Below are positions 3,218 through 13,507 of a stretch of DNA of 26,467 nt, one piece after another; position 1 is the first letter of the stretch; every line of letters starts with the position of its first letter. Made by a program: the position numbers and the translations under genes. The notes below the pieces were generated by a model. It was not told where the DNA came from and ran no database searches. It saw only the letters and a program-made list of their open reading frames with translations. Location of the stretch: the NCBI GenBank assembly GCA_035296645.1, contig DATHAN010000340.1, positions 1 to 26,467 of the forward strand, in the 5' to 3' direction. This stretch comes from Thermoleophilaceae bacterium (GTDB lineage Bacteria > Actinomycetota > Thermoleophilia > Solirubrobacterales > Thermoleophilaceae).

Positions 3218-3828
3218 ACATTCGCCGCCTGCTCCTCATCCGCCACGGGAGCACCGACGCTGTGCGCCGGGCCGCATTCCCGCTCGACGAGCCGCTCGAC
3301 GAGCTCGCCCGCGTCGCGCTCGCTTCGCTTGACCGCCGGCTCGGCGGCGAGGCGCTGACGAGCCCGGCGCTTCGCGCCCGTGAGACCGCGGCCGCGCTTG
3401 GCCTCGAGGCGAGCCCGGAGCAGATGCTGCGCGAGTGCGACTTCGGCGCCTGGGCCGGACGCACACTGGCCGGGATCGCGGACGAGTCCCCGGGCGAAGC
3501 CCACGAGTGGATGCTCGATCCGCGTGCGCGCCCGCACGGCGGCGAGACCCTCACCGAACTCCTCAGTCGGGTGGGGTCGTGGCTCGAGCGGCAGCGGCGC
3601 CTCGACGGACGCGCGATCGCGGTCACTCACGGGGGTGTCATCAAGGCGGCGGTCGTGCACGTGCTCCGTGCGCCGCCTGCGGCGTTTTGGCGCATCGACG
3701 TGAAGCCCCTTTCGGTCACCGAGCTGCATGCGAGCGAAGCGGCCTGGACCCTGACGCGGTCGAACGCAACCCTCGCCGAGGCGACACCGGCCCCAGTCGC
3801 CGATCGAGGCGAGGTGGGCGTCCGATGA
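3214..3828 (+). CDS. Histidine phosphatase family protein (probable CobC-like alpha-ribazole/adenosylcobalamin phosphatase); start codon uncertain, CTG proposed
   Basis: LLLIRHG, SPALRARETA, LRECDFGAWAG, GGET and VTHGGVI motifs in the 3' part of ORF 2317..3828. No nearby ATG/GTG/TTG precedes the RHG motif. Confidence 0.82.
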   Translation: MNIRRLLLIRHGSTDAVRRAAFPLDEPLDELARVALASLDRRLGGEALTSPALRARETAAALGLEASPEQMLRECDFGAWAGRTLAGIADESPGEAHEWMLDPRARPHGGETLTELLSRVGSWLERQRRLDGRAIAVTHGGVIKAAVVHVLRAPPAAFWRIDVKPLSVTELHASEAAWTLTRSNATLAEATPAPVADRGEVGVR

Positions 3829-4748
3829 GCGCGGTCGCGCTCGGAGCCGGCTACGTGGCCGACCGGCTCGTCGGCGATCCGGGGCGCGCCCACCCCGTCG
3901 CCGGCTTCGGCCGCCTCGCAAGCGCGGCCAACGGCGTGTTCTATTCGCCCAGCCGCGCGCGCGGCGCCGCCTTCGTCGCCTCCCTCGTTGGACTCGCCGC
4001 GCTCGCCGGTGAGCTCGCCTCCCGCTCGAGCCGGGCAGCCGGGCTCACCGAAGGAGCCGCCCTCGCCGTCTTCGCCTGGGCCGCCCTCGGCGGTCGCTCG
4101 CTCTGCCGGGAGGCGGACGCGATCGCGGCGAGGCTGCGGTCAGGCGAGATTGAGGCTGCCCGCGCGGCGCTGCCCGCCCTCGCCGGGCGGGATCCTGAGA
4201 CGCTCGACGCCGTCGGGATCACTCGCGCCGTGGTCGAGTCGGTCGCCGAGAACACGAGCGACGCCGTCGTCGGCGCCCTCTTCTGGGGAGCCCTGGGCGG
4301 CGCTCCCGCGGTAGCGGCGTTCCGGGCTGCGAACACACTCGACGCGATGATCGGCCACCGCTCGCCACGCTACTCGGAGTTCGGCTGGGCGGCGGCGCGC
4401 CTCGACGACGCGATGGGCTGGCCCGCGGCGCGGATCGGCGCAGGTCTCGCGGTTCTCTGCGCGCCCCTCGCTGGCGGCTCGCCGCGCCGGGCCTGGCGCA
4501 TGCTGCGACGCGACGGCGCCGCGCACCCGAGCCCGAACGCCGGCCGAATGGAGGCCGCCTTCGCCGGCGCGCTCGGCGTGCAGCTCGGCGGCGATCTCAG
4601 CTACCGCCGACGGATCGAGCCGCGGCCGCGGCTCGGCGATGGAGAGCCCCCCGTTGTCGCGGACATCACTCGAGCGACCGGGCTCTCGAGCGCCGTTGGT
4701 GCCGCCGCGCTCTTGCTCTGCACCGCTCTTAGCTGGAGGCTCGGATGA
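3825..4748 (+). CDS. cobD: Adenosylcobinamide-phosphate synthase CobD/CbiB
   Basis: GDP...HPVAGFG, ESVAENTSDAVV, RAANTLDAMIGHR, HPSPNAG..EAAFAGALGV.LGG. ATG overlaps the upstream TGA (ATGA). Confidence 0.95.
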   Translation: MSAVALGAGYVADRLVGDPGRAHPVAGFGRLASAANGVFYSPSRARGAAFVASLVGLAALAGELASRSSRAAGLTEGAALAVFAWAALGGRSLCREADAIAARLRSGEIEAARAALPALAGRDPETLDAVGITRAVVESVAENTSDAVVGALFWGALGGAPAVAAFRAANTLDAMIGHRSPRYSEFGWAAARLDDAMGWPAARIGAGLAVLCAPLAGGSPRRAWRMLRRDGAAHPSPNAGRMEAAFAGALGVQLGGDLSYRRRIEPRPRLGDGEPPVVADITRATGLSSAVGAAALLLCTALSWRLG

Positions 4749-6286: not shown

Positions 6287-8277
6287 GCGCGGTGGGCGCG
6301 CCCGCTTATCCGTTCTCGGCGCTCGTCGGCCTCGACGAGCTGCGCACGGCGCTGCTCGCAAACGCCGTCGACCCGGCGATCGGCGGCGTCCTCGTTCGCG
6401 GCGAGAAGGGGACGGCGAAGTCGACCGCGGTGCGCTCGCTTGTGCGCCTGTTGCCCGAGGTTGAGGTCGCGGACGGCTGCGCCTTCTCCTGCGACCCGCG
6501 TGAGCACGCCGCAACGCCATGTCCAGCCGGCCCCCACGAAGACGACGCCATACAGGGACGGCCGGTGCGCCTGGTCGAGCTCCCGGTCGGCGCCTCGCTC
6601 GACCGCGTCACCGGTTCGCTTGACGTCGCCCGCGCGCTGACCGAGGGCGAGAGCGCGTTCGAGCCCGGCCTCCTCGCCGACGCCCACCGCGGCGTCCTCT
6701 ACGTCGACGAGGTAAACCTGCTCGCCGACTACCTCGTCGACGTCCTCCTCGACGCGGCGGCGCTCGGAGTCAACTACGTCGAGCGCGATGGCGTCAGCGT
6801 CCGCCACCCTGCCCGCTTCCTACTCGTCGGCACGATGAACCCCGAGGAGGGCGAGCTCCGCCCGCAGTTGCTCGACCGCTTCGGGCTCAGCGTCGAGGTG
6901 TGCGGGTCGCGCAACCCCGGCGAGCGCGCAGAGGTCGTCCGCCGCCGGCTCGCCTTCGACGCCGACTCCGCCGGGTTTGCCAGCGCCTACGAGGCGGAGG
7001 AGGCGGAGCTGCGCGATCGGATCGGAGCCGCGCGCGAGTCGCTCGGCCGCCTCGCCCTGCCAGACCGGATCGTGACCCTGATCGCTCGCGTCTGCGCGCA
7101 GCTCGATGTCGACGGGCTGCGCGCCGACATTGTTTGCGCGAGGACGGCGTCGGCGCTGGCGGCGCTCGACGGCGCCGCCGAGGTCCAGGAGGAGCACGTC
7201 CGCCGCGCGGCGATCCTCGCGCTCGCTCACCGGCGCCGGCGCGGGCCGCTCGAGCAGCCACGCCTCGACCCCGACGAGCTCGAGCGGGCGCTCGCCGGCG
7301 ATCCGCCCGAGGAAGATCCACCTGACCGCCCGAACGGGCGCGGCAACAGCCGCCCTCGCAAGCAGGCGGAGCGAGACGATGCCCCAGCGCCGGCCGAAGG
7401 CGATCGCGCCCGCGGGCCCGCGAGCGGAGGCGCGGCCCGCTTCGAGCGTGACGCTCCCGCCCCGCAGGAACGCAGCGACGACCCCCTGAGCGGCTTTCGG
7501 GCGGCGAGATTTGAGCTCGACGGGGGCGGGCGCGGCGCGCCCGGCCGAAGGCTCTCCGGAAGCGCCCAGAGTGGCCGGGCCGTCGACGAGAAACGGCACG
7601 CACCCGGGGAGCCGCTCGCGCTGCTGCCGACGCTCCGCGCGGCCGCCCCGCGCCAGCGGGCCCGCGGGCGGACGGCCGCCGGGCTCGAGCTCGAGCGCTC
7701 CGACCTGCGCTCGGCGGTGCTCGAGGGGCGAAGCGGCGCCCTGCTCGTCTTCGTCGTCGACGCAAGCGGCTCGATGGCCGCCCGCCGGCGGATGGCTGCG
7801 GTCAAGGGCGCGGCGCTCGCCCTGCTCGCCGACGCCTACCGCCGGCGCGACCTGGTCGCCATGATCGTCGCGCGCGGGACTGGGGCCGAGCTGGTGCTGG
7901 CGCCGACCGCGAGCGTCGAGATGGCGGCCGAGCGGCTGGCACGGATGCGCGCCGGCGGCCGGACCCCGCTCGGCGCCGGGCTCGAGCGCGCGCACGAGCT
8001 CGTCCGGGCGCAGCGCCTGCGTGGGGACGAGCGCACGCCGGTGGTCCTGCTCGTCACCGACGGCCGCGCCAACGCAGGCGGTTCCGATCCGATGCGGGCG
8101 GCGCTTTGCGCCGCGGCGGCGCTTCGCCGCCAGGGAGCGTCGCTCGCCGTGATCGACTCCGAGCAGGGGCCGGCGAGGCTGCGCATGGCGAGGGCGCTAG
8201 CCCAGGCCGTCGGTGCCCCAGTCGTCTCGCTCGACTCGCTCGCTCCAGAGAGCGGGCCCGCGACGAGGGCGGCATGA
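6283..8277 (+). CDS. ChlI/ChlD-like AAA+ ATPase fused to a VWA domain (probable cobaltochelatase partner of CobN)
   Basis: YPFSALVG, Walker A GEKGTAKS, Walker B LYVDEVNLL, GTMNPEEGELRPQLLDRFG, a Pro/acidic linker, then MIDAS motif DASGSM and LVTDGRAN; 664 aa. Confidence 0.92.
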   Translation: MSAVGAPAYPFSALVGLDELRTALLANAVDPAIGGVLVRGEKGTAKSTAVRSLVRLLPEVEVADGCAFSCDPREHAATPCPAGPHEDDAIQGRPVRLVELPVGASLDRVTGSLDVARALTEGESAFEPGLLADAHRGVLYVDEVNLLADYLVDVLLDAAALGVNYVERDGVSVRHPARFLLVGTMNPEEGELRPQLLDRFGLSVEVCGSRNPGERAEVVRRRLAFDADSAGFASAYEAEEAELRDRIGAARESLGRLALPDRIVTLIARVCAQLDVDGLRADIVCARTASALAALDGAAEVQEEHVRRAAILALAHRRRRGPLEQPRLDPDELERALAGDPPEEDPPDRPNGRGNSRPRKQAERDDAPAPAEGDRARGPASGGAARFERDAPAPQERSDDPLSGFRAARFELDGGGRGAPGRRLSGSAQSGRAVDEKRHAPGEPLALLPTLRAAAPRQRARGRTAAGLELERSDLRSAVLEGRSGALLVFVVDASGSMAARRRMAAVKGAALALLADAYRRRDLVAMIVARGTGAELVLAPTASVEMAAERLARMRAGGRTPLGAGLERAHELVRAQRLRGDERTPVVLLVTDGRANAGGSDPMRAALCAAAALRRQGASLAVIDSEQGPARLRMARALAQAVGAPVVSLDSLAPESGPATRAA

Positions 8278-8834
8278 GCGCGCCCGAGCGGGTCGCCCCG
8301 GGCGAGAAGCGGCGCGACCGCGCCCTTCTGGTCGTGATCACCGGCAACGGCAAGGGCAAGTCGACCTCCGCCTTCGGGACGATGCTCCGCGGCTGGGCGC
8401 GCGGCTACCGGATCGGCGTCTTCCAATTCGTCAAGTCGGGCAAGTGGAAGGTCGGCGAGCACCGCGCCGCGCGCGAGCTAGGCGGGATCGAGTGGGAGAA
8501 GATGGGCGACGGCTGGACCTGGACCTCGCGCGATCTCGAGCAGAGCGCCGACCTCGCCCGCGAGGGGTGGGAAGAGGTGAAGCGCCGGATCGCCGCCGAG
8601 ACCTACGACCTGCTCGTCCTCGACGAGTTCACCTACCCACTCACCTTCGGCTGGCTCGACACCACCGACGTCGTCGACACCCTCCGCGACCGGCCCGGCT
8701 TCCAGCACGTGATCGTCACCGGCCGCGACGCCGCGCGGGAGCTGATCGAAATCGCCGACCTGGTCAGCGAGGTGAGCAAGGTCAAGCATCCCTTCGACGA
8801 GGGGATCCGCGGCCAGCAGGGGATCGAGTGGTAG
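8274..8834 (+). CDS. cobO: Cob(I)yrinic acid a,c-diamide adenosyltransferase CobO/BtuR
   Basis: TGNGKGKSTSAFG, QFVKSG, LVLDE, VIVTGR, KHPFDEGIRGQQGIEW. ATG at 8274 overlaps the upstream stop. Confidence 0.96.
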   Translation: MSAPERVAPGEKRRDRALLVVITGNGKGKSTSAFGTMLRGWARGYRIGVFQFVKSGKWKVGEHRAARELGGIEWEKMGDGWTWTSRDLEQSADLAREGWEEVKRRIAAETYDLLVLDEFTYPLTFGWLDTTDVVDTLRDRPGFQHVIVTGRDAARELIEIADLVSEVSKVKHPFDEGIRGQQGIEW

Positions 8835-9763
8835 AGGCGCTCCTCATCCTCGACGGCGCCGCCGAGCGTCCCGTCGTAGAGCCGACGAGCCTCGAGCGCG
8901 CGCACACCCCGGCGCTCGACGCGCTCTGCGCCCAAGGCAGCGTGCGCTCGCTAACCACGATCCCGCCGGGGCTCGAGCCCGGCAGCGAAACGGGTATCCC
9001 GACCCTGCTCGGCTTTCCCCTGGACGGGCAGCCCTCCCGAGGGTTGATCGAGGCGGCGGCGGCCGCGATCAATGTGCCGCCGGGCATGAGCGCGTGGCGC
9101 TGCGACCTCTATCTCGGCGGCGCCCGCCACCGTCCCCGCCAGCCCGCCTATACCGGGTGTGCGCTCGAGGCCTCGGCGCCGGGGTTCCGGGCCTTCCACC
9201 TCCGCGGCCACCGCTTCCTCCTCGTCGGCTCGGGACGCCCGCGGCCGCACTTGCCGGGCCTCGAGCTGTGCGTGTGGGGCGACGGCGCGCCGCTTGGGCC
9301 GACGCTCGATCGGAGCACGGTGGTGATCTGCGGCCCCGGCGCCGCCGCCGGTATCGCCCGCCTGCTCGGCGCCCGGGCGCGGATCCCCGCCGGCGCCACC
9401 GGGGAGCGGCGAACCGACCTCGCGGCCAAGTGCCGCGCCGCGCTCGAGGAGCTCTGGCGCAGCGAGCGCGTAGTCGTCCATGTCGCCGCGCCCGACGAGG
9501 CCGCTCACGAGCACGATCCGGAGGGCAAGGTGCGGGCGCTCGAGGCGATTGACGCCGAGCTCGTCGGGCCGCTCGCCGCCGCGGCGCTTCGCTGCGGGGG
9601 GCGGATCACAGTCGCCCCCGACCACGCCACTGACTCGCACACCGGCGAGCACCTCAGCCAACCCGTCCCCGCGGTCGTCGCCGGAGCGGGCGTGCGCGCC
9701 TCGGGCCCGGAGCGCCTGGCCGAGCGCCTCCTCGATGCCGAACTGCCGGCGGTGGGTACGTGA
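8828..9763 (+). CDS. ApgM-like (cofactor-independent phosphoglycerate mutase / proposed homoserine kinase family) alkaline-phosphatase-superfamily metalloenzyme
   Basis: 311 aa from GTG 8828. Motifs: ILDG(D9), TSLERAHTPALDAL, PPGLEPGS(S53), RGLIEAA, AWRCDL, VWGDG, GATG...TD...K, APDEAAH(D223,H227), GKVRALEAID, APDH(D265,H266), GEH..PVP(H275). Confidence 0.85.
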   Translation: MVEALLILDGAAERPVVEPTSLERAHTPALDALCAQGSVRSLTTIPPGLEPGSETGIPTLLGFPLDGQPSRGLIEAAAAAINVPPGMSAWRCDLYLGGARHRPRQPAYTGCALEASAPGFRAFHLRGHRFLLVGSGRPRPHLPGLELCVWGDGAPLGPTLDRSTVVICGPGAAAGIARLLGARARIPAGATGERRTDLAAKCRAALEELWRSERVVVHVAAPDEAAHEHDPEGKVRALEAIDAELVGPLAAAALRCGGRITVAPDHATDSHTGEHLSQPVPAVVAGAGVRASGPERLAERLLDAELPAVGT

Positions 9764-11148
9764 TCCCCCGGCTTGTGATTGCGGCCCCGGGCTCGGGCGC
9801 GGGCAAGACGACGGTCGCGACCGGGTTGCTCGCGGCGCTCGCCAGGCGCGGGCTGCGGCCGGCCGCGTTCAAGGTCGGCCCCGACTTCATCGATCCCTCC
9901 TACCACCGGCTCGCGAGCGGCCGCCCCGGCCGGAACCTCGACGCCTTCCTCTCCGGCGAGGACCTGATAGCGCCGCTTTTCTGCCACGGCGCCGAGGGCG
10001 CCGGGATTGCGGTGATCGAGGGGGTGATGGGCCTCTTCGACGGCCGCCGCGGCAGCGACGACCTCGCGTCGACCGCCCATGTCGCGCGCCTGCTCCGAGC
10101 GCCGGTGGTACTTGTCGTCGACGCCCGCGCCATGGCGGGTTCGGTCGCCGCCCTTGTCGCCGGCTTCGCCTCCTTCGACCCGAACGTGCGCGTCGCCGGC
10201 GTCGTCCTCAACCGGGTCGGCTCGTCGGTGCACGAGGAGATGCTCCGCGACGCGCTCGCACGGGTCGAGATGCCCGTGATCGGAGCGCTGGGACGCGACG
10301 AGGTGCTCGCCGTTCCCGAGCGCCACCTGGGCCTCGTCCCGACCGCGGAGCGCGACGAAGCCGCCCGCCGCACCGTCGCGGAGCTGGGCGAGCGGGTCGC
10401 CGGCGCCTGCGATCTCGATGCGGTCGTCCGCCTCGCCCACGAAGCAGGCCCGCTCGCCGTGGGCCGCTGGCGGCCGGACGAGGCGGTCGCGGCGGCGAGG
10501 GCGGAGCCGGGCGGTGATCCGATCCGGATCGCAGTTGCGAGCGGACCCGCGTTCAGCTTCCGCTACGAGGAGAACCTCGAGCTGCTGCGTGCAGCCGGGG
10601 CGGAGTTGTTCGAGTTCAACCCGCTCGCTGGCGAGCTGCCCGCGGGCGCCGACGGCCTGCTCCTCGGCGGCGGCTTCCCGGAGGCGTTCGCGGCCGAGCT
10701 GAGCGAGGCGCGCGCGCTGCGCGAAACGATGCGCGAGCTCGCCGCTGCCGGGCGGCCGGTGATCGCGGAATGCGGCGGCCTCCTCTTCCTCTGCCGCGAG
10801 CTCGACGGGCGGCCAATGTGCGGAGTGATCGAGGCGAGCGCGCGGATGGGCGACCGGCTCACACTCGGCTACCGCGAAGCCGAGGCCGCGAGCGACTCCG
10901 CGATCGCCCCCGCGGGCGAGCGCTTGCGTGGGCACGAGTTCCACTACTCGACCGTCGAGCCCGAGTCCGGCACTTCGCCGGCGTGGCGCGTCTACAGGCG
11001 CGGACGATTTACCGAGGAAGGCTTCGTCCGCGCCGGCGTCCATGCCAGCTATCTGCACACCCACTGGGCAGCGACCCCCGCGGTCGCGGCACGGCTCGTC
11101 AGCTCCGCGCGTGCGGCGCGGCCGGGGCTTGTCGGAGGACCTGCGTGA
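9760..11148 (+). CDS. cobB: Hydrogenobyrinate/cobyrinate a,c-diamide synthase CobB
   Basis: IPRLVIAAPGSGAGKTT, FKVGPDFIDP, IEGVMGLFDG, PERHLGLVP, AECGG, RGHEFHYS. Confidence 0.97.
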   Translation: MIPRLVIAAPGSGAGKTTVATGLLAALARRGLRPAAFKVGPDFIDPSYHRLASGRPGRNLDAFLSGEDLIAPLFCHGAEGAGIAVIEGVMGLFDGRRGSDDLASTAHVARLLRAPVVLVVDARAMAGSVAALVAGFASFDPNVRVAGVVLNRVGSSVHEEMLRDALARVEMPVIGALGRDEVLAVPERHLGLVPTAERDEAARRTVAELGERVAGACDLDAVVRLAHEAGPLAVGRWRPDEAVAAARAEPGGDPIRIAVASGPAFSFRYEENLELLRAAGAELFEFNPLAGELPAGADGLLLGGGFPEAFAAELSEARALRETMRELAAAGRPVIAECGGLLFLCRELDGRPMCGVIEASARMGDRLTLGYREAEAASDSAIAPAGERLRGHEFHYSTVEPESGTSPAWRVYRRGRFTEEGFVRAGVHASYLHTHWAATPAVAARLVSSARAARPGLVGGPA

Positions 11149-11921: not shown

Positions 11922-13507
11922 TGGCGCTCGTCCTCGTCACCGGTGGGACCCGCTCGGGCAAGAGCGAGCTTGCCGAGCGGCTCGTCGCCGAGGCGGGGAT
12001 CCCGGTGAGCTACGTCGCCAACGGCACCGCCGCGGACGCCGAGATCGAGGAGCGGATCGCCGCCCATCGCGCGCGCCGCCCGCCGGAGTGGAAGACCGTC
12101 GAGACCTCCGACCCAGTTGCGGCACTCGAGAGCGCCGACGGCCGCGCGCTCCTGCTCGACTCGCTCGGCGGCTGGGTCGCGGCGCTGCTTTCCGAGGGCA
12201 CGACGGTGCCGGAGGGGCCGGTGGCGCCGCTCGGCGATGACGGCCGCCGCGAGCGGGCGGGGCGGCTGGCACGGATCGAGCGCTTCGCTGTCCGCGCTGC
12301 GGCGCGGCCTGAGCCGACCGTCGTTGTCGCGGAGGAGGCCGGGCTCGGCCTCGTCCCGCCGAACGCCGCCGGACGCCGCTTCCTCGACGTCCTCGGCGAG
12401 GCGGCGCAGGTGATCTCCGCCGCGGCCGCGCGGGTCGTCCTCGTGGTCGCCGGGCGGCCGCTCGAGCTCGTCCCTGAGCGACGGCACGAGCTCGTGCCCG
12501 AGCTTCGCTTCCATGGCGACGAGCTCAGTCGCGGGGCCCACGAGGACCACGCCGTTAGCGTCGTCGCCGAGGAGCGCCCGCCGTGGCTCGAGCAGGCGCT
12601 CGCGGCCGGGATCCGCGCCGGCGACCGCTATCCGGACGAGCGCCGTGCGCGCGCGGCGATCGCCCGCCGCCATGGCCGCGCGCCGGAGGAGATCGTGCTC
12701 ACGAACGGCGCCAACGAGGCGTTTTGGCTGCTCGCTGCGGCGCTGCGGCCCCACCATGCGGTCTGTGTCCATCCCGCCTACACCGAGCCGGAGGCCGCCC
12801 TGCGCGCGCACGGAGTCACCGTCGAACGTGCCTGCCGTGGGCCTGGCTTCAGGCTCGACCCGGACACGATCCCGGCCGGCGCCGACCTCGTCATTTGCGA
12901 CAACCCGAACAATCCCTCCGGCCGGCTTGAGCCGGCGGCGCGTATCGAGGCGCTCGCCCGCCCCGGGCGGACCCTGGTAGTCGACGAGGCGTTCATCGAG
13001 CTCGTCCCCGGCGAGCTCGAGAGCGTCGCCGGGCGGACCGGGGTCCCGGGGCTTGTCGTGATTCGCAGTCTGACCAAGCTTTGGTCGCTTCCCGGGATCC
13101 GCGCCGGGTACCTGCTCGCGCCGCTGCCGGTGGCGCGGGCGGTCGAGCGGATTAGACCCTCGTGGAACGTGAACGCGGTCGCGCTCGGCGCGATCGAGGC
13201 GTGCGCGCCCCGGGTAGCCGAGGGCCGCGAGCGGGCCGAGCGGGTGGCGCGGGAGCGGCGGCGGCTCGAGGCGGGGCTGGCCCAGATCGCCGCGCTCAAG
13301 AGCTGGCCCTCGGTCGCGAACTTCGTCCTTGCCCGGGCGCACGGCGGCGAGCGGCTTGCTGCGCGCCTGCTCGAGCGCGGGACCGCTGTGCGCCCATGCG
13401 GCAGCTTCCCGGGCCTCGACGGCGATCACCTGCGGATCTCCGTCCGCGCCCCGGACTCGAACCAGCGCCTGCTCGCAGGGCTGACGGAGGTGCTCGCAAC
13501 CGCATGA
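11921..13507 (+). CDS. cobU: Fusion: adenosylcobinamide kinase/guanylyltransferase (CobU/CobP) + PLP-dependent L-threonine-O-3-phosphate decarboxylase (Salmonella CobD / Pseudomonas CobC type)
   Basis: 528 aa single frame. N-part: LVTGGTRSGKSELAE, RIAAHRARRP, LLDSLGGW, EEAGLGLVP, VVLVVAG. C-part: FHGD, LTNGANEAF, NPNNPSG, VVDEAF, RSLTKLWSLPGIRAGY (PLP Lys), RISVR. Confidence 0.9.
   Translation: MALVLVTGGTRSGKSELAERLVAEAGIPVSYVANGTAADAEIEERIAAHRARRPPEWKTVETSDPVAALESADGRALLLDSLGGWVAALLSEGTTVPEGPVAPLGDDGRRERAGRLARIERFAVRAAARPEPTVVVAEEAGLGLVPPNAAGRRFLDVLGEAAQVISAAAARVVLVVAGRPLELVPERRHELVPELRFHGDELSRGAHEDHAVSVVAEERPPWLEQALAAGIRAGDRYPDERRARAAIARRHGRAPEEIVLTNGANEAFWLLAAALRPHHAVCVHPAYTEPEAALRAHGVTVERACRGPGFRLDPDTIPAGADLVICDNPNNPSGRLEPAARIEALARPGRTLVVDEAFIELVPGELESVAGRTGVPGLVVIRSLTKLWSLPGIRAGYLLAPLPVARAVERIRPSWNVNAVALGAIEACAPRVAEGRERAERVARERRRLEAGLAQIAALKSWPSVANFVLARAHGGERLAARLLERGTAVRPCGSFPGLDGDHLRISVRAPDSNQRLLAGLTEVLATA

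Follow-up and report, generated by a model that had tools for sequence, protein, structure and literature searches.

To our knowledge, only a few groups have a recognised enzyme for the threonine-phosphate step in the synthesis of the B12 linker: enterics use PduX, some Rhodobacterales use BluE, and Methanosarcina has a CobD fusion. The pathway is thus left incomplete here in the majority of predicted B12 producers. The Salmonella PduX and Rhodobacter BluE proteins are characterised L-threonine kinases that feed the same decarboxylase (PMC6249242). Among the ApgM-related proteins, HomK of Bacteroides thetaiotaomicron (BT2402; TIGR02535) complements an E. coli thrB mutant and has been read as a homoserine phosphotransferase, with the Glu at its position E299 proposed to hold the homoserine amino group (bioRxiv 10.1101/2024.10.14.618325). 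The family that the original prediction named only as a proposed homoserine kinase has since gained experimental backing as a homoserine phosphotransferase. An ApgM/TIGR02535-like protein of Dehalobacter restrictus called “CbiU” (Dehre_1608) was proposed to be an L-threonine kinase in 2015 (PMC4285132), and the same function was proposed in 2026 for cobD-adjacent HomK homologues of the archaeal Bathycorpusculaceae (bioRxiv 10.1101/2024.10.14.618325). The idea of an ApgM/HomK-like threonine kinase, which the original prediction put forward as new, has therefore been proposed before, and any claim of novelty for the gene described here is limited.

This gene, here called gene X, lies in the B12 operon of a soil actinobacterium and occupies bp 8828–9763 of the window (the whole 26,467-nucleotide stretch of DNA that was analysed; all features given here are on the forward strand). 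Its frame is stop-free and encodes a 311 amino acid, short-cap ApgM/HomK-like metalloenzyme (P0001), a candidate L-threonine phosphotransferase. The GTG start codon (bp 8828–8830) lies within a 7 nt overlap with cobO, whose TAG stop is at bp 8832–8834, and the TGA stop (bp 9761–9763) combines with the GTG start of cobB (bp 9760–9762) in a GTGA overlap; both junctions are as originally predicted, and the gene X start agrees with the N-termini of its homologs in an 18-sequence alignment. The cobO gene (corrinoid adenosyltransferase, bp 8274–8834; NF004637, 246 bits) itself overlaps the stop codon of an upstream chelatase gene in an ATGA sequence (bp 8274–8277), and cobB (bp 9760–11,148) encodes an a,c-diamide synthase (NF002204, 513.9 bits). 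Farther downstream lies a gene for an L-threonine-O-3-phosphate decarboxylase of the CobC/CobD type (bp 12,488–13,507; NF005915, 348.8 bits; TIGR01140, 243.9 bits; PF00155 match), which shares one frame with cobU (bp 11,924–12,469). Upstream, the cbiB/cobD gene (bp 3828–4748; NF002276, 392.9 bits) encodes the adenosylcobinamide-phosphate synthase, for which aminopropanol phosphate is a substrate, and a gene for a CobC-like histidine phosphatase (bp 3229–3828) has its best match to TIGR03162 at 94.9 bits, below the cut-off of that model, and matches PF00300 at 115 bits; on these matches its product covers the α-ribazole phosphate/adenosylcobalamin phosphate phosphatase step. A cobalamin riboswitch stands at the head of the operon (bp 2063–2244; RF00174, 74.1 bits; gathering score 31.5). 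B12 functions were assigned to every operon gene other than gene X, and the window carries no gene for a kinase of the GHMP or APH type. As originally described, the operon has a threonine-phosphate decarboxylase gene and a single gene of no known B12 role.

The gene X protein matches the alkaline phosphatase superfamily metalloenzyme domain (PF01676) over residues 4–300 with 88.4 bits, well above the cut-off of 24.3. In alignments, its two metal sites, D9/S53/D265/H266 and D223/H227/H275, coincide with the nucleophile and metal ligands found both in HomK-type proteins and in the solved ApgM structure 2zkt. All seven residues are invariant in the 18-sequence alignment and present in 79–80 of 80 orthologs; the intact superfamily site read from the sequence in the original prediction is confirmed. 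The Ser53 codon (bp 8984–8986) lies in a conserved G-S-E motif, aligns with the catalytic Ser of the HomK-type proteins and 2zkt, and specifies Ser in 79 of 80 orthologs, and the metal-binding residues D223, H227, D265, H266, and H275 (bp 9494–9652) are kept in 80 of 81 sequences. The AlphaFold2 model has a pLDDT of 94.9, and its best solved match is 2zkt (TM 0.76–0.82).

The cap domain (residues 88–150, bp 9089–9277, delimited by alignment, by a partial PF10143 match, and by the secondary structure of the model) is reduced. About 65 residues are missing, among them the TPPHD motif of HomK and ApgM, and only positions 3–62 of the 170-position PF10143 model are matched; the cap is 59 residues long, within the range of 45–67 in its clade, compared with 115–135 in HomK and full-length relatives. 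It nonetheless keeps R91, D93, H128, R129, and W150. Cap residues R71, R91, R129, and K201, which are common to HomK and ApgM, are kept in the gene X orthologs, as fits a small anionic substrate, and Asp93 and His128 form a pair specific to the gene X clade. Four longer members of the clade (P0126, P0127, P0131, and P0133) were considered as possible gene fusions, but no second Pfam domain was found in them; insertions or start sites called too far upstream seem to account for their greater length.

At the specificity site, defined by Lys versus Glu (bioRxiv 10.1101/2024.10.14.618325, Appendix 3), the gene X protein has neither. Its Ala220 codon (bp 9485–9487) falls in a column occupied by Lys in the ApgM mutases and by Glu in HomK, whereas the gene X clade has Gly or Ala there (71 of 81 sequences carry Gly, 7 Ala, 2 Asp, and 1 Pro); the equivalence of this column to BT2402 E299 is drawn from the Glu/Lys contrast with 2zkt. 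Proteins that pass TIGR02535 read HVEAPDE here, whereas the gene X protein reads HVAAPDE. Profile searches also place the protein outside both families, since it scores 175.4 bits against the ApgM model TIGR00306 (cut-off 320) and 131.6 bits against the HomK model TIGR02535 (cut-off 446.3); true TIGR02535 members from the same class score 449–536 bits. Membership in TIGR02535 is thus not borne out, either by score or by the HomK marker Glu. An ApgM would have a complete PF10143 cap and Lys at the specificity site (as in 2zkt), and a HomK would have the marker Glu and either a threonine operon context or a genome lacking ThrB; gene X has none of these. Profile searches found no GHMP or APH domain in the protein, the PF00288 and PF08544 domains of a PduX-type kinase included. 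It is also matched by NF038358 (PhpG family), and its public annotation is phosphoglycerate mutase. Among 1.84 billion proteins searched, the closest ones outside the gene X clade are nearly all of the HomK-like Glu type and not mutases of the Lys type, and the tree sets the gene X clade (27 representatives, support 99) apart from the Glu-type proteins. Judged from its sequence, the gene X protein falls outside both ApgM and HomK proper.

In all 80 Thermoleophilia loci, gene X is clustered with cob genes, and 73 of these loci have the order cobO–X–cobB, although these loci are not independent of one another, since most of the linkage evidence comes from this one class. Its usual neighbors are cobO and cobB and not the decarboxylase gene, but in rearranged loci gene X stays with cobT, cbiZ, cbiB, cobU, cobQ, and the threonine-phosphate decarboxylase gene; for example, the order in loci L009 and L011 is cobQ–cobT–X–cbiZ-like–cbiB–cobU–decarboxylase, and in L006 and L016 gene X is beside the decarboxylase gene, cobT, and cobQ. 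The repeated cob linkage to which the original prediction looked for support is therefore found, and it persists after rearrangement. The CobC-like histidine phosphatase gene is present in the gene X cluster of the window and of L005, L090, L108, L109, and L111. Cultured carriers of gene X include Conexibacter (such as C. stalactiti), Patulibacter (such as P. defluvii), and Svornostia (such as S. abyssi). A separate clade of short proteins is found in Bacteroidales; these keep the Glu, and their genes have the order X–cobU–cobT–cobS–cobC in operons that adjoin cbiB, the decarboxylase gene, and cobQ. One short Glu-type protein (P0239) is not cob-linked. In the Bacteroidales metagenome-assembled genome G201, the short protein and IspE were found and ThrB and full-length HomK were not, and there the short protein could be a homoserine enzyme.

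The genome that carries the window encodes a canonical GpmI (516 bits to 1ejj) and a ThrB (204.6 bits; cut-off 168), and ThrB is also present in four other gene X-carrying genomes. The original prediction allowed for a PduX elsewhere in the genome; neither this genome nor five relatives yielded a PduX-type kinase, and since the genome is a 66.6%-complete bin, its own lack of pduX and bluE is unproven. ThrB and IspE are the only GHMP kinases found in this bin, and a third GHMP kinase, which might be a PduX, was not found in it or in relatives G023 and G071. BluE is, we presume, a member of the APH family; two APH-family genes are present elsewhere in the genome and none in the window.

Gene X was not found in most of the sampled genomes of the class, including three with cob clusters. 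The latter are near-complete relatives (G035, G065, and G198) with the same cluster, in which cobO is directly beside cobB without gene X, and PduX was not found in them either. Their cob clusters contain no recognisable substitute kinase, as the gaps hold an AAA/TPR protein or nothing recognisable. Gene X is thus not universal among near-complete relatives, and it must be dispensable or accessory; with gene X, PduX, and any obvious substitute within the cluster all lacking in these three genomes, another source of threonine phosphate must exist in the group. The anticorrelation with pduX that had been predicted is not seen, given these three genomes without either gene, and the GHMP kinase counts show no contrast (two to three in genomes with and without gene X alike).

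We give about an even chance to the reading that the gene X protein acts as an L-threonine phosphotransferase and so provides the threonine phosphate for the B12 linker. It would be a two-metal phosphotransferase with a phospho-serine relay, derived from the HomK/ApgM lineage. Ser53 would accept its phosphoryl group from a small phosphorylated compound, which by analogy with HomK may be other than ATP, and would then hand this group to the 3-hydroxyl of L-threonine; the L-threonine-O-3-phosphate so made would be the substrate of the decarboxylase whose gene lies three genes downstream, and CbiB would attach the aminopropanol phosphate so formed to adenosylcobyric acid. Threonine as the acceptor, the nature of the donor, and a possible role of Asp93 and His128 in amino acid binding are parts of the scheme that we infer. 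In its support are the HomK precedent, the Glu-type nearest relatives, the prior presence of GpmI, ThrB, and a CobC-like phosphatase, the cob linkage (also in rearranged loci), the riboswitch, the gene overlaps, the kept cap residues, and the failure to find a third GHMP kinase in this bin, G023, and G071, as well as an apparently independent recruitment in Bacteroidales, to which the literature adds the Dehalobacter CbiU and the cobD-adjacent archaeal homologs. On the other hand, the HomK Glu is replaced by Gly or Ala and about 65 cap residues are missing, so a substrate other than an amino acid is conceivable. It also counts against this reading that three near-complete relatives do without gene X and that the usual neighbors of the gene are cobO and cobB and not the decarboxylase gene. 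The original idea of a recruited phospho-Ser-relay threonine phosphotransferase that replaces PduX is supported in part, by the intact enzyme, the cob linkage, and the separate phosphatase, but its novelty and the predicted anticorrelation with pduX are not upheld.

It appears unlikely that the gene X protein is instead a hydrolase of a pathway intermediate or by-product, such as α-ribazole-5′-phosphate, adenosylcobalamin-5′-phosphate, or the inorganic triphosphate released by CobO, with whose gene it is translationally coupled. The alkaline phosphatase superfamily site is intact, and the reduced cap and small specificity site residue would open the pocket, but the cap arginines common to transferases and mutases are strictly kept and would not be needed by a simple hydrolase of a bulky corrinoid. 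CobA/CobO-type enzymes release triphosphate, and in 73 of the 80 loci gene X is directly downstream of cobO with overlapping codons; it is, however, away from cobO in the rearranged loci and in Bacteroidales. It follows cobT in L009 and L011, but a CobC-like histidine phosphatase is already present in the same cluster in both the gene X clade and the Bacteroidales clade.

Somewhat more doubtful is a transfer of phosphate to a non-threonine substrate of the cobamide pathway, for example another linker, a lower-ligand precursor, or a phosphoglycerate-like compound. Other groups can be transferred by this scaffold, as the related PhpG family (NF038358) demonstrates, and the loss of the HomK Glu, the gain of the clade-specific Asp93 and His128, and the fact that relatives manage without gene X all point in this direction; on the other side, all the remaining phosphorylations in the known aerobic pathway have an enzyme in the operon, and several independent lineages place such genes beside cbiB and the decarboxylase gene (PMC4285132; bioRxiv 10.1101/2024.10.14.618325). 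Finally, a housekeeping phosphoglycerate mutase or homoserine phosphotransferase riding in the cob operon is very improbable. The best family matches (TIGR00306, 175 bits; TIGR02535, 132 bits) and the public annotation speak for it, but both scores are far below the curated cut-offs, neither Lys nor Glu is at the specificity site, GpmI and ThrB are present, and gene X was found only inside cob clusters and not in most sampled genomes of the class, the three with cob clusters included.

If the threonine phosphotransferase reading is correct, the gap at the threonine-phosphate step would be closed for the abundant soil Thermoleophilia and probably also for gut Bacteroidales, genome-based prediction of cobamide makers and remodellers would improve, and the HomK chemistry, itself only lately recognised, would gain a second substrate. 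The claim is practical to test, given the cultured carriers and an existing complementation system in Salmonella pduX mutants. More broadly, and tentatively, short-cap HomK derivatives may be a widespread, non-homologous, and probably ATP-independent answer to the missing L-threonine kinase, recruited at least two times (the Gly/Ala type with Asp93 and His128 in Thermoleophilia and the Glu type in Bacteroidales), with parallel shrinkage of the caps and retuning from homoserine to threonine.

Among the known systems, PduX and BluE carry out the reaction proposed for the gene X protein, but they are ATP-dependent kinases unrelated to it, and the gene X protein would be a non-homologous replacement for them, probably with a different phosphate donor. 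CbiU and the Bathycorpusculaceae homologs, themselves proposals and compared with gene X here from their published descriptions, are similarly ApgM/HomK-like, lie among late cobamide genes in pduX-free genomes, and have the same proposed function; gene X agrees with the CbiU type in being an ApgM/HomK-like gene in a cobamide operon with a threonine-phosphate decarboxylase gene, in a genome that is pduX-free as searched, but it has lost the Glu that the Bathycorpusculaceae homologs are reported to keep. The ApgM proteins (TIGR00306; PDB 2zkt and 3kd8) have the same catalytic core, and 2zkt is the best solved structural match, but the Lys of their HFKPTD sequence is Ala in the gene X protein, whose cap is truncated and whose genome has its own GpmI. 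HomK (ThrB2, TIGR02535) differs in having the TPPHD motif and about 65 more cap residues, the marker Glu in place of Gly/Ala, Asn in place of Asp93, and Tyr or Phe in place of His128, and it lies in a threonine operon, whereas gene X lies in a cob operon in a genome that also has ThrB. HomK nevertheless shares with the gene X protein its fold, its nucleophilic Ser, both metal sites, and cap residues R71, R91, R129, W150, and K201, and it belongs to the nearest sequence neighborhood; the two proteins likely also share the same chemistry, in which a phospho-Ser intermediate serves to phosphorylate the hydroxyl group of a small hydroxy-amino acid.

Gene X (8828–9763, + strand) encodes a 311-aa protein, its translation free of stops, and is part of a single long aerobic-type cobalamin operon on the + strand of the window. 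The window is 74% G+C and comes from a metagenome bin (66.6% complete, 1.74 Mb); its named relatives are Thermoleophilia (Solirubrobacterales, Conexibacter, Baekduia, Patulibacter and Thermoleophilaceae). A cobalamin riboswitch (RF00174, 2063–2244, + strand, 74 bits) lies at the operon head upstream of cbtA, and B12 probably represses the entire set of overlapping genes, X included. The gene order is cbtA, a histidine-phosphatase CobC-like gene, cbiB, cobQ, a ChlI/ChlD-type chelatase gene, cobO, X, cobB, cobM, cobU and the L-threonine-O-3-phosphate decarboxylase gene (one frame), cobT, cobS, cobG, cobH, cobI, cobJ, cobN, cobL, cobF and cobK. The GTG start of X falls 7 nt within cobO, whose TAG stop is at 8832–8834; the TGA stop of X and the cobB start overlap in GTGA, and the chelatase stop and cobO start have ATGA in common. 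Translation, junctions and alignment agree with the coordinates, overlaps and active-site residues of the original prediction throughout. The cobU and decarboxylase sequences occupy one unbroken frame (11924–13507, + strand) that resembles a fusion protein, and are separate adjoining matches in other loci.

The X protein matches PF01676 (Metalloenzyme, alkaline-phosphatase superfamily) at 88.4 bits and just the first third of the cap model PF10143. All its best NCBIfam matches are far under their cut-offs: apgM (175 bits, cut-off 320), PRK04200 (133, cut-off 426), TIGR02535 “proposed homoserine kinase” (132, cut-off 446) and PhpG (120, cut-off 545). The nearest solved protein, by sequence and structure, is Pyrococcus horikoshii ApgM (2zkt), to which the AlphaFold2 model (mean pLDDT 94.9) has a TM of 0.76–0.82. 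In an alignment with true TIGR02535 members of the same class (449–536 bits), catalytic Asp9, Ser53, Asp223, His227, Asp265, His266 and His275 are in place, and cap and core residues Arg71, Arg91, Arg129, Trp150 and Lys201, common to HomK and ApgM, are retained. Compared with those members, X lacks ∼12 residues after the RCx motif and ∼65 between the (H/Y)R and WxWG motifs, including the conserved TPPHD stretch; its cap has 59 residues, against ∼120 in TIGR02535-type relatives. Three residues ahead of the metal-binding Asp, X has Ala220 (HVAAPDE), whereas 2zkt has Lys (HFKPTD) and TIGR02535 members have Glu (HVEAPDE). Given this contrast between Lys and Glu, the column would correspond to BT2402 E299, the specificity-determining Glu of HomK that mutases replace with Lys (Price et al., bioRxiv 10.1101/2024.10.14.618325, Appendix 3). 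Among 81 clade sequences, site 220 carries Gly (71), Ala (7), Asp (2) or Pro (1); 80 sequences have Asp93 where HomK and ApgM have Asn, 78 have His128 in place of Tyr or Phe, and the seven catalytic residues are retained in 79–80 of 80 orthologs. X is a real, well-conserved feature and a structurally distinct form of a known kind of enzyme; with its catalytic residues kept, it appears to be an active enzyme of this scaffold, and with scores below the cut-offs and a changed specificity site it belongs to neither named family.

A word-indexed protein search returned more than 260 proteins of 280–340 aa, every named one from Thermoleophilia, and when each species was represented by a single genome, 114 loci encoded an X-like gene. 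Neighborhoods of the best 80 of these 114 were examined by placing the window's own cob proteins on them by tblastn. The repeated linkage to cob genes that had been anticipated is present in 80 of the 80, a count that overstates independence because the loci belong to one class with common ancestry; the order is cobO-X-cobB in 73, and the decarboxylase gene lies inside the fetched flank in 58 (median distance ∼2 kb). Rearranged loci are more telling than the overall count. Loci L009 and L011 have the order cobQ-cobT-X-(CbiZ-like amidohydrolase)-cbiB-cobU-decarboxylase; L006 and L016 carry X in divergent orientation, with the decarboxylase gene or cobT on one side and cobQ on the other; in L075, X comes after cobQ; and in L080 the closest cob gene upstream of X is cbiB, with cobB directly downstream. 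Outside the cobO-cobB slot, then, X remains with genes that make and attach the aminopropanol-phosphate linker and nucleotide loop. The arrangement in L009 and L011 is a salvage-type block; the match of its CbiZ-like gene (6927–7655, + strand, in L011; same position in L009) to CbiS (NF038002, 118 bits) covers the N-terminal half of CbiS. A cobN-chelatase-cobO-X-cobB cluster of Thermoleophilia type (L081, CAMCUD010000003.1) is in a bin titled “Bifidobacterium breve” that is probably mislabeled or contaminated.

Searching 1.84 billion representatives with a profile yielded 4142 matches, and a tree was built from 129 full-length matches with the cap columns taken out. The X clade (27 representatives, support 99) is defined by its shortened cap together with Asp93, His128 and the small size of residue 220. 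It includes P0155 and P0148, the latter from a locus with cobB-X beside cobC-like, cobT, cobS, cobN and BtuCDF-like transporter genes, and a subgroup whose nucleophile is Thr instead of Ser (P0145, P0150, P0161, P0176 and P0177; L116 1156–2214); P0145 is encoded directly after cobO. The remainder of the tree is almost wholly Glu-type, and Glu-type P0154 has the classic HomK context, a hom-thrC-X-lysC operon. Nested in this part is another short-cap clade, independent of the first (P0166, P0170, P0180, P0207, P0228 and P0263; support 99; cap 50–54 residues), whose named members come from Bacteroidales and Muribaculaceae bins (genes at L109 4873–5823, L111 7001–7996 and L110 29–1006). In all three contigs examined (P0166, P0170 and P0228) the short-cap gene is immediately upstream of cobU, and two have a full X-cobU-cobT-cobS-cobC-like array beside cbiB, an aminotransferase-class decarboxylase gene and cobQ. 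Because this clade is separate from that of X, cap shortening combined with cob linkage arose at least twice. Neither ThrB nor full-length HomK was found in one carrier of the Bacteroidales-type gene, MAG G201 (completeness unstated). An “Asn-type” clade contains full-length ApgM-like proteins with Asn at the specificity site; one of them, P0182 (623 aa), also carries an NTP-transferase domain, a fusion that may hint at PhpG-like or nucleotide-linked chemistry.

The most economical reading, about an even call, takes X as a phosphotransferase of HomK descent that would phosphorylate L-threonine and so feed the decarboxylase of the same operon. The substrate is not simply transferable from HomK, because X has lost the Glu and most of the cap. 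The main rival, a fairly unlikely one, makes X a hydrolase of a pathway phosphoester or of the triphosphate from CobO. CobO-type adenosyltransferases release triphosphate. The operon's histidine phosphatase, with alpha-ribazole phosphatase as its top match, is a candidate for the final dephosphorylation step, and a His-phosphatase gene is likewise paired with X in L005, L090, L108, L109 and L111. Some other phosphotransfer within the cobamide pathway is distinctly unlikely. A housekeeping role is highly improbable: the same genome has canonical GpmI (516 bits to 1ejj) and ThrB (204.6 bits, cut-off 168.25), the X-carrying G071, G023, G183 and G003 have ThrB matches (that of G003, at 158.9 bits, slightly under the 168.25-bit cut-off), and X is not needed for the steps covered by GpmI, ThrB and the CobC-like phosphatase. 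Full-length HomK-type genes (412–536 bits to TIGR02535, some above cut-off) occur in other families of the class (f7, f9 and f10; G002–G194), far from cbiB in the four genomes with both on one contig (G002, G008, G014 and G088).

The threonine phosphotransferase reading must also accommodate relatives without X. Among ∼200 sampled genomes of the class (192 of high quality, ≥90% complete and ≤5% contaminated), X is present in 5 and cbiB in 67. The near-complete relatives G035, G065 and G198 lack X and have closely similar clusters in which cobO adjoins cobB, and no substitute was found in the gaps of these clusters; G035 is of the same genus as X-carrying G023. Thus, even close relatives do not all carry X. 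The replacement of PduX by X originally proposed would predict an anticorrelation, which is absent: each of these three genomes encodes two to three GHMP kinases, as do X-carriers. (In the window's own 66.6%-complete bin, no GHMP kinases other than ThrB and IspE were found.) The group must therefore have another source of threonine phosphate.

The characterized L-threonine kinases are PduX and BluE (PMC6249242). The idea that X is a new one has a precedent: Rupakula et al. described an ApgM/TIGR02535-like gene, Dehre_1608, in a nucleotide-loop operon of Dehalobacter restrictus, proposed it as an L-threonine kinase and named it cbiU (PMC4285132). No assay report was found in the literature searched for any cob-linked member of the HomK/ApgM-like family. 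X is neither the first of its kind nor proven as a threonine phosphotransferase; it is a directly testable candidate for an open step of B12 synthesis. For HomK itself, complementation shows that it forms phosphohomoserine; Price et al. argue that ATP is an unlikely donor and phosphoserine a possible one, and speculate that two cobD-adjacent homologs in Bathycorpusculaceae form threonine phosphate (bioRxiv 10.1101/2024.10.14.618325).
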